A stretch of DNA of 40,347 bases, filler included, from Mycoplasmatota bacterium (GTDB lineage Bacteria; Bacillota_I; Bacilli_A; RF39; UBA660), in assembly GCA_012727915.1 (NCBI GenBank). It is 4 parts of 4 records of this genome, joined end to end, with 100 filler letters (N's around TTAATTAATTAA, not from the genome) between each part and the next. Parts side by side here need not be neighbours in the genome. Positions count along the whole stretch, not along the records: positions 8,637 to 10,174 come from JAAYGD010000018.1; positions 10,275 to 20,859 come from JAAYGD010000019.1; positions 20,960 to 40,347 come from JAAYGD010000020.1; 1 more part is not named here. One strand, written 5' to 3'. Numbering within the stretch: position 1 is the stretch's first letter; each line of letters starts with the position of its first letter. Of the stretch, positions 9,001 to 21,000 are shown one piece after another. The position numbers were made by a program.

Positions 9001-12000
9001 TAGTTGTCTATTTATATCAAGTTATTTAATGCTTATACCCCTATATAAAGTTTTATCTTTTAATGCTTTTGCATATGTATCTGTTATTAAAATATCTCCA
9101 TTAGGATTGATGCTCTTTCTCTTGGATATTTCGTCATAATATTCAACATTTGATTTTATAACGGATTCTTCATCGAGCATAAATAAATTTGCTCTCATAA
9201 AACAAGTTCTAAGAATATTTTTGCTATCTAATTTGCCTTTTACATTATGTTTTTTTAAATCAAATTGAGTTTTTTTCAAATTATCTAAAATTATCCCTCC
9301 GAATATTGATGCATTTATTTCATTAGGAATATCTGTAAATCTCATATAAAAATTAGCCATTATTGGGATATTATTATCAACTTCAAAGTTATTCATTAAC
9401 ATTTCTGATTCTAAATAATCATTTAAAAATATTAAATTATATTTTGCTTCAATCAATTCATATTTAATATTTTCATCTTCTATAGTATTTATGCTGTCTT
9501 GAATCATAGATAAATAAACCCTATTTATATCATCATTAAAAAGGTTATCACAATAAATTAGATACGAAGATAAACGCACCCCATATTTTATTTCACTATA
9601 TTTTTGAAGTTCTTCTTCTTTTTTTAAACTTTCAAGTTCCTGAAGTATACGATTAAATATTCTATTAAACAAATATCTATTTGGTAAATCTTTTGAATCT
9701 CTTATTATGCTTTCTTGATCATCAAATTGCCCTAACAATAATTCGTTTTTTAAATGTACACTTGCATTAATCATTTCTAATAATTTGTGTTCCTCTATAT
9801 CCATACAGTCTTTTATTAAATCATTTATGTTTGATAAAGAACTCATTGTTTCTTTAAAATCTTCGCTATCCTTAGAACCTATAGCTTCAAAATAAGCAAG
9901 GTCTTCATATAATTCTTTTCTTTTATTTATCAATGCTTCTTCTTTTTTATAGTTTAAATAAGCCAACTCAAATTCATCCATACAACCCTCCATAAACATA
10001 TATAATATACTATTTTTATATATTTTCAAACTATAATTGATAATTTATTTCTTTTATGATAGAATATCAAATTAATTGAGGTGAAAGTATGAAATATTCA
10101 TCAAATTTTGATTTTTATTTATTACCATCTAGATCTATTTTTACAGATTTTTTAAGCGAATATAAATATATAGANNNNNNNNNNNNNNNNNNNNNNNNNN
10201 NNNNNNNNNNNNNNNNNNTTAATTAATTAANNNNNNNNNNNNNNNNNNNNNNNNNNNNNNNNNNNNNNNNNNNNGGAAAAAAGTCTACTGATTCATTAAA
10301 AAATATAGAAGAAATAAAAAAAGAATATACTGATTTAATATTAGTATTTCAAGAAAAAATAGATGTATTAACTAAAGCGCGAATAACTTATGAAAAAGAA
10401 ACACATAGAGGAGTTGAGTCTATAGCAAGCGTATCTCAAACACCAAACCCAACATCAACACCAAGCTCAACATCAACACCAAACCCAACATCAACACCGA
10501 GTGCAACGGATGAACCAATTGTAGCTCCAATATTAACACCACCACCAACCTTAGAACCAACGGATTCATCTAATATTCAAGATAATTCTTATATGCAAAA
10601 TGCAAATACTATAAAAGTTGATAATGGAATGTTACGTAACTTGGGAGTTAAATTTGATGGTGATGTTCCCAGAATGTATCAAAATGCTTATATATCTAGT
10701 TTAGGAGGAATGGATTATTTGGTTTCTTTTCCTAAAAATAATTTTGGAGAAACCCCAACAAATTTACCGGTTTTTGTTGAATTTCATGGAAATTCAGCAT
10801 CAAAAAATTGGGAAAAAGCTGGAGTTACTAACTCAACGTCGTTTAATGCTTTTATGGCGGGACCTGTTATGGGATTAAAGGCTACTCAAAATAATCCAAA
10901 TTTGCCGGCTATTATAATTATGCCACAATCTTCTGTACCTGGATTTATTGGCAATAATCTAGAAAGAGTTCATAATATTTATACCACTGTATCAAGTTCT
11001 TTAGATTCTGACAAGGCTGGTTTTAATGCTAATGTATTTAGTGCGGGTGGATCGGGTTTTTATAGATATTGTAAAGAATACTCTTCTGATGTAAAGGCAG
11101 CATATATTGTGGATCCGTCTACTTATGCTGATAAATTATCTAATGTTCCGCAAAATATACCGGTATATGTATTTACTTCAACTGATTCCGGCCCTTATAA
11201 CAGTCAGTTTTTAAAAGCTGTTGATAATTTAAATGCAAATTTAACAACACACGCTAATTTGTCAAAAGATGAACCTATTGAATTACTTAATATGATAGGA
11301 AATCCAAATTTAAATGGATATAATTTAATTAATGTTAATAATACTAAACATGAAGAATTAAGAGATTTGGTTTTTACACAAGATTTTTTTAACACTGTAT
11401 TAGCAAAAGATTTCAATCAACCAAATATGTGGATGTCCGCTTCAGAATAGAGTTTGTATTAAATAATAATAAAGAGGTGTTTATGAATAATGTTTCAGTA
11501 GATTTAAGTAAAATGTTAAGTATTGAAAATGAATTAATTGTCTTAAAAGACAAGTTTTCAAACAAAATAAATGAAATAAATACAAGTATTGATTTAATAG
11601 ATAGTAATTGGGATGGAAAAAAATCAAATGAAACTTTAAAGAGTATAGAGGATATAAAAAAAAAATATAATGATTTGATATTAGTATTTCAAGAAAAAAT
11701 AGATGCATTAACTAAAGCAAGAACAACTTATGAAAATGAAACAAATAAAGGAGTTGAATCTACAGCAACAACAAGTCCGACGGCGACACCAAGTCCGACG
11801 GCGACACCGAGTCAGACAGCAACACCAAGCCCACAACCTCAATCAACAGTGGAAGCAACCACAAAACCCTATATGCCTACACACGATTTTTCAGGAAGCA
11901 CAGAAGCAATTGTTTTAGACAACCATGTGTTAAAAGATTTAGGAGTAGTTTTTGATGCTTCGGGAAATCCTATGAAAGTTGGAAATACATATGTAATAAA

Positions 12001-18000: not shown

Positions 18001-21000
18001 GAAAAAGCCGGACAAAACATTGCGGAAGCTAGTTCTAAAAATAGTAATTTAGGTTAAAAATAAGGAGGAAAATATGAAATATACAGTATCATATGAAGCA
18101 ATTGATACTACCATTATGAAATTGCAAAATGCAAAAGCAGCATTAAATTCTTATGTTAATTCAATAGCAGCTTCCATAAAATATTCAGTTGGCGTAAAAA
18201 GTCATGATGTTGATAAATTAAAAAATCAATATGAAACAGAAGTTGTTCCTTCTCAAAAAGAGTTGGAAAAAGCTATTAATGAAACAATAGATTATTTAAA
18301 TAATGTTAAAAAGAATTATCAAATTGCAACTGGTCAATTATAATAATATGTCTCTATTAATAGAGACTATTTCTAATTAAAATAAACATTATTTAATTAG
18401 AAATAGTTTTTATGGAAAGAGTGGTAAATATGGAAAAGGGTTTGTTAGTTGTTGATTTTGATGGGGTCTCAGCATATTCTCAAAATTTGAAAGTAAAAGC
18501 AAATAGTATAAAGAATAATTTAAGTATGCCAAGTTTGAGTGTGGCTGTTTTTGGATTGCTTTCTAATTATCAAATCGATTATACAAATCATGTAAACAAA
18601 TTAAATGTTTTTGCAGATGATTTATCAACCAAATTAAATTCATATAATGAAAATTTGCTTACTATAGAAGGATATGTAAAAAATGTGGAGAGTTCTTCAC
18701 GAAGCACAACGCCTTCACATGAAAATAATGATGGAAATTATTCTGGTGAAGGTCCAATAATGCTTCCTGGAAATCTTTTAGCAACTTCTGGATTTACACA
18801 TTTGCCAGTTAACGCTTCGTTAGAAGAAGTAAATCAAAGAATTAATGAACTTCTCAAAATATTGGGTTTAACTGTAACTGATTTATATTCGGGCAAATTT
18901 AATGAACTATTGCAACAAATTTTGTCTTTTGCACCAAGTTCGGTTACATATTTAGAGGTTTTAACTCAACTAGAAGAACTACTTATTCAAAAACATTTAA
19001 ATGATATGACTAAATCTCCAGCAAAACCAAAGCCTTTTCTACCAATAGAAGCATTCTTAATATATTTGGCATATAATAAAAATATTGATTATGAAAAAAT
19101 GTTGATTGATGAACAATATGCAAAAATGATTAAAGAAAGTTTAATTTTACATAAAGAATCATTAAAAGGATTATATGATTTATCATTAAAAGATGCTGTT
19201 ATTGCGCAAAAGGAATTGTTTAATATAATAAATTCACCAGACTTATCAAGCATCAAAGTTGATAATATTACTCTTGATATATTAAAAGGTTATTTAAATG
19301 ATGTTGCAAAAAGAAATGACATATCACTAGAGGCTATGCTTACAAAAGAAGAATATGCTCCGTTAGCAAAAAAATCGTTAGAAGAATTTTTAAAATTCTG
19401 GTTATATGGAGAAGAAGGAAATATTCCTATTTCTGATGTAGTTAAAAAAATAGAAGAAATAGCTTTAAGCAATAATTCAAGTGTAGAAGAAATATTAAAA
19501 GGATTAAATACTGGTGCTTTAACTGAACTGGCTAATAATATTGATAATAACTCATTTGGAGAAATTATAAATAACATGGATGGCAAAAATATTCAAAATT
19601 TTATTGAAGAAATAGTAATTAATAATCAACATCCAGAAGTTAAAGAAAATCCCGTTATTAAGGAAATAGTTAATTCTATTGTTAGAAATAAAGATTATAT
19701 TTTAAATAAAGGACCGAAGACAATATCTCCAATTAAAATGGAAGATATTTCTAGTATAGAACCTTTACCACAAGAAACAAATTGGGAAGAAATAGTAGAT
19801 GAGGATTTAAAAACAATTTTAACAGATCCTCAATACTCTGATAAATTAAAAGAAGTTATATCTGAGGATAGTAATTTTAATTGGAGTGGTTTAATACCTT
19901 TAGGAGCTGGTTTAGGGTTAATTCCTTTAATTGTAGCACTAAGCAAAAAAGATAAAACAAAAAAAGATTATAAACCTTCTACCGAGAACTCTAAGAGAGG
20001 CTTAATAAATGAAAGCTTCACTTATTTTGCGGACTCAAATATAGTAACTGAAGAGTCATTATTAGACGGAACAAATTTTGAATTATTAACTATTTATTTA
20101 AGTCAACTAGATAGTCTAACTGCAATACTAAATGTTTTGTCAATAATGAAAGACGAAATTTTGCAAAAATATTTTCTTGAATTATATAATCAAAAATATG
20201 AACATATTTGGGGAATAGGATCAATTAATTTAAAAATTATATTTAATAGTCTTGAACAAAAAGCAAAAAAACAAGGACTTGATTTGAATACATTTTTAAA
20301 TAATTCAAATTACGAAGTTTGGGTAAAAACTGCTATTGTAGAATTGCTTAAATTATATGAAAAATATGATCAAGACATATCTATAAAAGGAGGATTAACA
20401 TATTATTTAAACGACTTATTTATAAATTCAAATAATTCAAAAAATATATCTCTTTTGAAAGAATATCTAGAAGTTTATTCAAAAAGTTTAGATATCGATA
20501 CAAATTCTTATTTAAACCAATTGACTGATAATATAAGTAAAAATAAGATTTTTGCCATTATTAATTTTGGAGATGGTTTTAAAGGTTTTTCTTTTGGAAT
20601 TCTAGAAGAAATAAATATATTATTAAATAAAAACAAAAAGATTGAAAATATTGAATCTAATATTGTTGATAGTAGAGTTATTGAATCTTCGGGTTTAACT
20701 TTGTTGTTGTTTAATTCAACTGATGACCAAATAGAAAAATCTATATTAAATATTATTGACAAGTATTCTATTTCTAAAGAAGATTTCTATAATAATAAAG
20801 ATAACTATTTTAATCAAATTGTTAACACTGCACCAAATTTAAATGTTGTTTTGTTCTTANNNNNNNNNNNNNNNNNNNNNNNNNNNNNNNNNNNNNNNNN
20901 NNNTTAATTAATTAANNNNNNNNNNNNNNNNNNNNNNNNNNNNNNNNNNNNNNNNNNNNAGCAAAAAAATATATTATTGGTAAAGTAATGGTTCAAGTAT

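Follow-up and report, generated by a model that had tools for sequence, protein, structure and literature searches.

Can a type VII secretion locus consist of little more than a membrane ATPase, a ubiquitin-like partner and a pair of WXG100-like proteins? This question is raised by a locus in G000, a small-genome digester bacterium of the RF39 group whose assembly has 76 contigs and a completeness of 93.8%; comparable EssC clusters occur in many uncultured relatives. The window, meaning the whole stretch of DNA that was analysed (40,347 nt), consists of contigs chained through N spacers, and the locus lies on the contig C75 (positions 10275-20859), with all features described here on the plus strand. 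A survey of the genome had found no paper tying RF39 to type VII secretion, and our literature searches agree. Using 201 genomes of the same family (0.5-1.6 Mb each) for comparison, we conclude, with a probability of roughly 65%, that the locus is a reduced type VII variant in which an FHA-bearing EssC, TsxB and a WXG100 pair form the only recognisable core.

The ATPase and its small partners

The central gene (12890-17500) encodes a 1536-aa EssC (TsxC) with an N-terminal FHA domain (Pfam, residues 111-170), membrane segments at about residues 260-310 as judged by hydrophobicity and a Walker A motif at residue 712. It scored 1009.8 bits against TIGR03928 (cut-off 778.4), which bears out its identification as an EssC. 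EssC exceeded this cut-off in 77 of the 201 family genomes, a proportion near the 60 of 151 seen earlier. The three small ORFs of 82, 99 and 89 aa reported after EssC were all recovered, and the first of them (17497-17745) overlaps the essC stop. The survey had detected no YukD, but the model of this 82-aa ORF (pLDDT 96.5) has the ubiquitin fold of YukD/EsaB, with Z scores of 12.0 against the ubiquitin-like domain of EccD5 and 10.0 against YukD (2bps). The protein, here called TsxB, has no C-terminal Gly-Gly and ends in hydrophobic residues. The YukD Pfam model matches 9 of 39 TsxB family members at E ≤ 0.1. TsxB was found in all 77 EssC genomes and in 80 of the 201 overall, the additional three being two genomes in which essC is split or broken and one that lacks it. 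When TsxB was modelled together with EssC, the complex score was 0.72, with a best control of 0.00; the runs shared at least 89% of contacts and the partner pLDDT was at least 82. Of 157 solved complexes, 116 reached the mark used for this score, as did 2 of 215 mismatched pairs; with our own alignments these counts apply only approximately. The modelled interface spans both FHA and DUF residues of EssC, and the site of YukD in YukB-YukD likewise lies between FHA and DUF (PMC12637312); the score may reflect likeness to that solved structure.

The next two ORFs encode WXG100-like proteins, which were assigned with a profile based on 49 small proteins from other genomes of the family and with 200 shuffled sequences as a control; every WXG assignment in the window falls under the curated Pfam and NCBIfam cut-offs. 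The 99-aa ORF (17758-18057), in which Leu replaces Trp, scored 24.7 bits compared to 6.1 for its reversed sequence and 8.9 for the best shuffle, and had no WXG match in Pfam or NCBIfam. It is probably TsxA1, a weak label because the A1 and A2 profiles differ little (16.4 vs 14.0 bits). The 89-aa ORF (18074-18343) scored 16.0 bits compared to 7.1 reversed and 11.0 for the best shuffle; it is probably TsxA2, with 16.7 bits on the A2 profile vs 9.6 on A1 and a TIGR03930 E value of 0.031.

Components not detected and the position of EssC

The label "type VIIb" given to the locus did not survive the profile searches, which were family-wide for EssB, EsaA, DUF6382 and TsxB and covered five genomes for EssA and DUF5050. 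EssB was over the cut-off in none of the 201 genomes (7 weak partial matches), as the survey had found for G000, and neither was EsaA (15 weak matches, none in G000); the B. subtilis control was positive for both. The weak EsaA-like matches were not tied to EssC (7/77 vs 8/124 genomes, Fisher p 0.58). A custom EssB profile, which recovered held-out EssBs at E values of 1e-45 to 1e-139, found nothing in G000. EssA was over the cut-off in 0 of 5 genomes; a custom EssA profile gave E 0.02 in G000, and this profile is weak, one held-out member reaching E 0.046. DUF5050 (TsgL) was found in one of its five genomes, as an unlinked copy in G170, and was not detected in G000, G007, G124 or G133.

It might be argued that this is a canonical T7SSb system whose essA, essB and esaA genes lie on unassembled DNA, given that EssC passes the T7SSb-derived TIGR03928 and has FHA domains and that the G000 assembly is incomplete. 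However, the searches for EssB and EsaA took in EssC-bearing genomes of one to three contigs, single-contig ones among them, which effectively refutes this explanation. The same-genus genome G007 has an intact locus (L117) in the order tex, hydrolase, hydrolase, essC, and neither EssB nor EsaA is found there. Since the left flank consists of tex and housekeeping genes, the worry over core genes on unassembled upstream DNA is largely lifted. The right flank lies outside the view: the locus is cut off on the contig C11 and, at about the same place, in G007. We regard the canonical explanation as very improbable.

The tree of EssC likewise places it outside the T7SSb clade. Forty family EssCs and 25 metagenome rows form one group (SH 0.77, with 0.97 for a 63-row core); monophyly of this reduced group is not resolved with one long branch included and has a support of 100 without it. 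The AU test rejects a grouping with T7SSb at p 1.6e-5, under LG+G4 without mixture and with groups named after the tree was seen. The FHA phosphothreonine site, judged by the motif residues of the G395 protein and of FHA domains in general, reads K-G-N-F in this EssC where R-S-H-N is expected. At most two of the four residues are present in 40 of 41 family EssCs, and none of the reduced group has an intact motif, compared to 26 of 33 rows of the sister lineage. In the reduced group, the metagenome locus L235 includes an ORF that bears an FHA-like motif, and a PP2C gene adjoins the family locus L064.

In the sister lineage the FHA site is kept, the loci show the same essC-tsxB-WXG-WXG order, and 14 of 33 have kinase, PP2C, DUF6382 or FHA genes, by motif or Pfam. 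The locus could therefore be an eroded member of a kinase-regulated group like T7SSe/f/j, relying on unlinked or unrecognised partners, such as a membrane protein encoded elsewhere, and minimal in appearance only. The term "e/f/j-like" for the sister lineage refers to gene content alone because the tree had no authentic e/f/j reference. A kinase-type locus of this sort is present in the family genome G196, and dispersal does happen, as tsxB lies up to ~17 kb away from essC in some family genomes. In contrast, the degenerate FHA motif of nearly all family EssCs argues against this explanation, and DUF6382 exceeded its cut-off in 1 of 201 genomes (G196). A motif scan of 40 loci found a kinase in one (G196) and PP2C in one, with neither in C75 nor in the intact G007 locus; the only ones in G000 by motif are one adjacent kinase and PP2C pair on C40. 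When 767 proteins from these 40 loci of 37 genomes were clustered, EssC, TsxB and WXG100 proteins were the commonest, followed by an ABC ATPase (14 loci), a DUF4176-like protein (10 loci) and others at 6 or fewer. No further partner was conserved across these loci, and no membrane-protein cluster besides EssC was common to more than 5 of the 40, in an analysis that is blind to unlinked or unrecognisable partners. Taken together, these results make the eroded-member explanation unlikely, and we favour the reduced variant.

WXG-headed hydrolases and other candidate substrates

Upstream of essC lie two genes for WXG-headed serine hydrolases, with gaps of 32 and 108 nt along g00926-g00927-essC. 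The first, g00926 (10275-11450), is 5'-truncated at the contig edge, with its frame open from the contig start, and comprises the second half of a WXG-like head, a Thr/Pro linker and an alpha/beta serine hydrolase; at full length it corresponds to the 423-aa record P0021. Other strains have 36-nt deletions in its linker, and other runs show two head variants at this place. The second, g00927 (11483-12781, 432 aa), has a WXG100-like head at residues 1-98 (W43-D44-G45), a Thr/Pro linker and a hydrolase domain at about residues 163-432. Its head matched Pfam WXG100 (E 0.0051) and TIGR03930 (E 1.1e-4) over residues 5-85, as the survey had noted. Against the family WXG profile it scored 39.4 bits, compared to 9.4 for the reversed sequence and no more than 7.4 for any of 200 shuffles, and its Trp is kept in 11 of 11 headed rows. 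The proposed alpha/beta-hydrolase domain was also confirmed. Its model in g00927 (pLDDT 84.6) best matches the esterase 3doh (Z 19.1, rmsd 2.8, 206 residues aligned) and has a nucleophile-elbow Ser, an acid and a His. Among the aligned hydrolases, S280 and H409 are present in 12 of 12 and D305 in 9 of 12, so that S280-D305-H409 is the predicted triad, with a putative Asp; the Ser and His of g00926 align with those of g00927. Neither protein has a signal peptide or a membrane segment, and g00927 has no hydrophobic segment at all.

The survey had proposed a polymorphic family in which the same head is reused on other cargo, and this family proved smaller than claimed, namely two hydrolases, one CHAP-like protein and one nonsense allele. 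The supposed other cargo g00047, at the very end of C7, is the missing 5' end of g00926 in a misassembled tandem pair: its first 48 residues differ from P0021 at a single position, and its final 119 nt match g00927 exactly. In g00381, codon 43, where the Trp of the W-D-G turn is expected, is an in-frame TGA, an ordinary stop codon in this genome (61 of 425 long ORFs). Only g00901 stands as the same head on different cargo; its CHAP-like domain matched Pfam at E 0.0027, under the cut-off, and its G007 orthologue is intact.

Could the hairpin be an ordinary coiled coil, with the essC neighbourhood incidental, so that the hydrolases are not type VII substrates? The WXG matches fall under the curated cut-offs, helical N-termini match falsely at a loose threshold (at E 0.05, 22 matches with real and 19 with reversed sequences), and full-length head-plus-hydrolase matches are confined to this genus among the 201 genomes searched. 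However, the head clearly exceeds its controls, and the proteins have neither a signal peptide nor a membrane segment. The pair occupies the same position beside tex in G007, and independent fusions of a helical head to an esterase occur in two other EssC-positive genomes, namely G017 and G010, the latter with two fusions and three WXG100 genes flanking one of them. We therefore consider a coiled coil distinctly improbable and the two proteins plausible substrates.

Fusions of a helical type VII targeting domain to an alpha/beta hydrolase are also found among mycobacterial PE-domain lipases such as LipY. Whether the hydrolases are TslA/Tle-like antibacterial toxins, aimed at competitors, is a separate matter. 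Type VII lipase toxins exist, TslA among them (PMC10730906), the same head bears a CHAP-like domain in g00901, and DUF4176 genes, which are linked to toxin modules, are those present in 10 of the 40 loci. In contrast, there is no linked immunity gene because tex, g00926, g00927 and essC lie too close together to leave room for one, here or in G007, and "effector" in the sense of a toxin is therefore unsupported. Related esterase domains in the family occur in membrane-anchored Ig-like surface proteins and in stand-alone proteins, and the top hits by structure are esterases of the small-ester and feruloyl type, a shared fold that proves no function. By judgement rather than computation, we lean slightly towards exported non-toxic enzymes that serve in deacylation or scavenging, hold toxins to be a clearly less probable alternative, and rate proteins that are not exported lowest.

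The last ORF of the contig (18430-20859) encodes the first 810 of 1376 aa, the rest being on C11. The junction proposed earlier is correct (127-nt exact overlap; 810 + 608 - 42 aa), and the two transmembrane segments noted for the protein appear as two hydrophobic segments. The protein has internal helical repeats and a weak helical T7-type head (12.1 bits vs 9.2 for the best shuffle), whose residues 1-95 match the structure of an EspC-containing cluster under the naming bar. Its G007 orthologue is 72-73% identical and has the internal repeat; the protein is not conserved across the family. It is a candidate substrate, followed on C11 by a WXG-like ORF of 104 aa (Pfam WXG100 E 0.0011).

A proposed reduced machine among known type VII systems

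The gene set, the folds, the co-occurrence of EssC with TsxB and the absence of EssB and EsaA matches point to a reduced EssC, TsxB and WXG100 variant that looks undescribed and differs from the classic Bacillus/Staphylococcus form. By analogy with the YukB-YukD and ESX structures, the membrane channel would consist of EssC hexamers, stabilised by TsxB from its place between the FHA and DUF domains, and the WXG pair together with small helical partners would direct cargo to the ATPase. Input from the EssB pseudokinase or from a kinase would not be needed, which fits the degenerate phosphothreonine site. The most likely cargo would be g00926 and g00927, which carry their own WXG-type hairpin and would be freed as serine esterases on a flexible Thr/Pro tether. 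A point against the reduced reading is how a wall would be crossed without EsaA, Mur ligases being present in most of these genomes; some family genomes apparently lack peptidoglycan genes. That an EssC hexamer, a TsxB clamp and WXG100s are a complete working machine, with no second membrane protein or phosphorylation switch, exporting self-targeting WXG-enzyme fusions and retained in roughly four out of ten of the sampled genera in this genome-reduced uncultured family, is a tentative proposal that falls a little short of an even chance. If true, EssC alone can serve as the translocation pore, and the locus is the simplest kit for reconstitution: with a natural four-gene version, the sufficiency of EssC/EccC and a ubiquitin-like clamp for export becomes directly testable in a laboratory host. 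The locus would also offer a specific means of acting on the surroundings to a genome-reduced lineage that is still poorly understood and whose reliance on hosts or neighbours is under debate (PMC13155120).

The locus shares with T7SSb (S. aureus Ess; B. subtilis Yuk/Yue) an FHA-bearing EssC/YukB, a free ubiquitin-like EsaB/YukD, WXG100 proteins, DUF4176 genes near cargo and a partner site modelled between FHA and DUF. In contrast to T7SSb, in which EssA, EssB and EsaA are essential (PMC11217815), it shows no EssB or EsaA match, EssA stays under the cut-off in the five genomes searched, tsxB follows essC, and a WXG pair replaces the single EsxA. As in T7SSe, T7SSf and T7SSj (Garrett, Higginson and Palmer 2024, PMC11217815), an FHA-bearing TsxC occurs with TsxB, and T7SSe also has a non-identical WXG pair; unlike in these subtypes, no kinase, phosphatase, DUF6382-FHA (TsxJ) or Ig-like gene is conserved at the locus, and the degenerate FHA site sets it apart from T7SSe and T7SSj. 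The hydrolases resemble TslA in fusing a helical targeting domain to an alpha/beta hydrolase; the TslA report (PMC10730906) gives that toxin the reverse domain order and an immunity lipoprotein, whereas g00926 and g00927 have a single 98-aa WXG-like N-terminal hairpin and no immunity gene. With such precedents the esterase fusions alone are of moderate interest, and the reduced machine is the main point. Subtypes c to j each have at least one further conserved part (PMC11217815). The closest in simplicity is T7SSg, the simplest layout described, with a WXG pair, TsxB, TsxC and one extra protein; its TsgC has no FHA domain, unlike the EssC here, and neither TsgL nor Tad genes are found at our locus, but T7SSg already shows that a second recognised membrane component can be absent.

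Gene order and flanks of the locus

On contig C75 (window 10275-20859), g00926, the first gene, is cut at the contig edge and is followed, with all genes on the plus strand, by g00927 (432 aa), essC (1536 aa), three small ORFs (82, 99 and 89 aa) and the N-terminal 810 aa of a large protein. The EssC assignment was borne out by a score of 1009.8 bits on the EssC model TIGR03928 (cut-off 778.4), and the protein has an FHA domain. A 127-nt exact overlap likewise upheld the continuation of the large protein onto contig C11, where it is followed by a 104-aa ORF with a WXG-like sequence. 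The C75 stretch was matched at half or more of its words in 19 DNA runs labelled bioreactor, digester, landfill, manure or wastewater, and in the four of these aligned to the stretch all 30 bins were covered. The large protein (1376 aa) was considered as a substitute for EsaA and ruled out, since outside the genus it has no more than weak, partial matches; an Atlas feature search with its first 480 aa gave leads that were all below 0.9. At the right end, an identical 102-nt stretch lies at the ends of both C11 (2144-2245) and C69 (9007-9108), and a contig of G007, a genome of the same genus, likewise ends just past the WXG-like ORF; since these breaks coincide, a repeat may bound the locus on this side. 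On another contig, C76, and so unlinked to the locus, the ORF at window 21292-23277 resembles, by its motif, a bacteriocin-type ABC exporter with a peptidase domain.

The survey had listed three further genes as the same WXG100-like head joined to other cargo, and one of them withstood scrutiny. g00047 sits at the very end of contig C7 and proved to be a contig-end piece: its first 48 residues differ at a single position from those of P0021, the full-length g00926 record, and its final 119 nt are shared exactly with g00927. In G007 a single contig carries a dUTPase-like gene, an ABC transporter, tex, two hydrolases, essC, small ORFs, the large protein and the WXG-like ORF, and the genes upstream on C7, with names read from translations, are the same. 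Two head variants were found at the C7/C75 junction position in other DNA runs. Taken together, the matching ends, the intact order in G007 and the two variants argue that C7 is the left flank of the locus and holds no hidden secretion gene. In g00381, an in-frame TGA, an ordinary stop in this genome, occupies the Trp position of the W-D-G turn, so that this gene is not a head on other cargo either; an earlier reading of it as frameshifted was replaced by the in-frame stop. The third gene, g00901, carries a CHAP-like domain behind the head and has an intact orthologue in G007. Away from essC, the genome also holds two small WXG-like genes together with one gene of 102 aa and one protein of 609 aa or more (C15:6726-9609), a 229-aa WXG-like protein with a Pfam match at the cut-off (C30:5826-6951), and a 187-aa helical protein diverged from g00381 (C29:4795-5355).

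A YukD-like protein next to EssC

The 82-aa ORF after essC, here called TsxB, has no Pfam match itself. Nine of its 39 aligned relatives match YukD at E ≤ 0.1, and it scored 0.94 for an Atlas cluster whose membership is 32% YukD. The name "methyltransferase family" given to the nearest Atlas clusters was rejected, as these have no Pfam family and the fold contradicts it. Because the TsxB alignment had no match among PDB sequences (best E 0.58), the identity of the protein was resolved only by folding. The structure model (pLDDT 96.5) had a top Foldseek TM-score of 0.82, to ESX-5 chains, and a wide structure search gave Z-scores of 12.0 to the ubiquitin-like domain of EccD5, 10.8 to EccD1 and 10.0 to YukD. 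Since many unrelated ubiquitin folds score alike, the fold alone is not specific, and specificity comes from genomic context. The TsxB family occurs in 80 of the 201 sampled family genomes: all 77 with EssC over the cut-off, two in which essC is split or broken, and one that lacks it. Two or three essC copies over the cut-off are present in 16 of the 77, with TsxB copy number mostly matching.

A complex model of EssC residues 1-660 with TsxB scored 0.72 (best control, 0.00), with at least 89% contact agreement between runs and a partner pLDDT of at least 82. Of 157 solved complexes 116 reach the mark applied, against 2 of 215 mismatched pairs; these figures are only approximate here, where different alignments were used. 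TsxB is contacted by the FHA and DUF regions of EssC alike, as is YukD in the YukB-YukD structure, according to the accessible part of its description (PMC12637312). Because that structure already exists, the result speaks for likeness and not for binding. Taken together, the modelled fold, the co-occurrence in 77 of 77 genomes and the relatives matching YukD indicate that the 82-aa ORF supplies the YukD which the survey had reported as absent.

Relation to type VIIb systems and descent of the reduced group

The survey had classed the locus as type VIIb. Neither EssB nor EsaA was over the cut-off in any of the 201 genomes, while both were detected in B. subtilis as a positive control. A custom profile built from 10 EssBs, which detected every held-out member with an E no higher than 1e-45, found no match among the 1099 ORFs of this genome, in agreement with the absence of EssB/YukC first reported. 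EssA was found in none of five genomes, a smaller sample, and 15 weak EsaA-like matches fell in 7 of the 77 genomes with EssC and 8 of the 124 without. In trees, the family EssCs stood apart from T7SSb references of Listeria, Bacillus, Limosilactobacillus, Enterococcus and same-class genomes, and an AU test, with groups named after the 120-row tree had been seen, rejected their grouping with T7SSb (p 1.6e-5). These comparisons of gene content and EssC sequence argue that the locus is not type VIIb.

We clustered 767 proteins from 20 kb around 40 essC loci, drawn from 37 of the 77 EssC genomes and picked for long contigs. Apart from EssC itself, only four kinds of protein were widespread: TsxB, at 36 of the 40 loci; small WXG100 proteins, at 24 when counted by BLAST and 31 with a profile; an ABC ATPase, at 14; and DUF4176-like proteins, at 10. 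At C75, the 99- and 89-aa ORFs score higher on WXG profiles than their reversed and shuffled controls, and the order essC-tsxB-WXG-WXG is that of the sister group, the nearest EssCs.

In the 120-row EssC tree, which 55 of 80 loci entered, 40 family EssCs and 25 metagenome rows formed one group (SH 0.77; 63-row core, 0.97). Later trees left out a Nonomuraea outgroup, probably a wrong or partial ORF with a branch of 6.18 in an earlier tree, together with metagenome EssCs shorter than 1300 aa and all exact duplicates. Scanning metagenomes with only the G395 EssC as query gave no match. The FHA motif is intact in none of this reduced group and in 26 of the 33 EssCs of the sister group, which has kinase, PP2C, DUF6382 or FHA genes at 14 loci. 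In the alignment, no more than two of the four phosphothreonine-binding residues remain in 40 of 41 family EssCs. In the exception, G196, the motif is intact, and a kinase and the only DUF6382 over the cut-off in 201 genomes adjoin essC; its EssC groups with the sister lineage, which suggests a separate acquisition. Because monophyly of the reduced group was resolved, with full support, only when one long branch was left out, its origin by loss from a kinase-regulated ancestor is put no higher than likely.

A tie between the reduced system and wall loss was ruled out, Mur ligases being present in most EssC genomes. Mur ligase matches are absent from G043, G124 and G195, with one weak match each in G057 and G164; these five of the 77, including the single-contig G124, appear to be without peptidoglycan ligases and possibly represent a type VII system in wall-less cells. 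In a neighbouring family (loci L137, L138, L140, L141, L145 and L146), a recurring layout of two WXG genes, a protein of 640-710 aa that mostly has one hydrophobic segment, a short EssC (1200-1300 aa) and a small ORF, which in L145 has a ubiquitin-like match, is possibly a further undescribed type VII variant.

Cargo and comparison with known type VII systems

The hydrolase domain of g00927, folded alone from an 18-row alignment, reached pLDDT 84.6 and matched esterases (Z 19.1, rmsd 2.8, 206 aligned to 3doh), which corroborates the esterase-type alpha/beta-hydrolase domain proposed earlier. S280 and H409 are invariant in 12 of 12 rows, and D305, kept in nine, lies directly past the strand that follows the nucleophile helix; S280-D305-H409 would thus form the catalytic triad. 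A word-based homologue search found only two proteins, nine of 24 relatives from a representative library have, on inspection by eye, a head like that of g00927, and full-length matches among the 201 genomes are confined to this genus. Twelve of the weaker loci, read individually, included other helical heads on related esterases (two in G010, and G017), surface-type versions with Ig-like or similar repeats (G081, G163 and G181) and stand-alone versions (G122 and G131). Because the space around g00926/g00927 is too small for an immunity gene, and because related esterases occur in surface-type and stand-alone forms, we favour exported enzymes over toxins. WXG-headed cargo numbered 13 real against 1 reversed at E 1e-3, the count at E 0.05 being uninformative (22 against 19). 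The CHAP-like paralogue and the DUF4176 genes suggest that the system probably carries antagonistic cargo as well.

In three of four DNA runs, 36-nt in-frame deletions fall in the Thr/Pro linker of g00926 (window 10438-10500), whose length is strain-variable. About 10 kb from essC in G017, a protein of at least 816 aa (L264:1-2448) combines a WXG-like head and an esterase-like region with cell wall hydrolase (E 3e-4) and glucosaminidase domains. In G128, the gene at L265:1501-2916, with a hydrolase-like N-terminus that has no Pfam hydrolase match, a helical C-terminal part and a glycine-rich stretch, is a possible reverse-order candidate substrate.

As the survey had stated, our literature search, which did not extend to subscription papers or to the supplement of PMC11217815, where these EssCs could be listed, found no paper linking RF39 to type VII secretion; one paper with both terms used them in unrelated places. 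The survey's observation is confirmed in part, for EssC, the esterase domain and one reused head, and its interpretation supported in part, as type VII secretion and not as type VIIb. By gene content, folds and co-occurrence, the C75 locus is a new, reduced variant of type VII secretion; we infer how it functions, that its four-part core suffices and what the esterases do. None of the subtypes T7SSc-j defined by Garrett, Higginson and Palmer consists of TsxA, B and C only, as far as the available part of that paper goes (PMC11217815); our EssC trees, which contained no authentic T7SSe, f, i or j EssC, do not cover placement against those four. DUF5050 was found in one of five genomes, unlinked to the locus. 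In the same part of PMC11217815, T7SSg comes nearest to the C75 locus in simplicity and differs in being without FHA domains and having a DUF5050 protein, whereas the EssC of C75 has an FHA domain.
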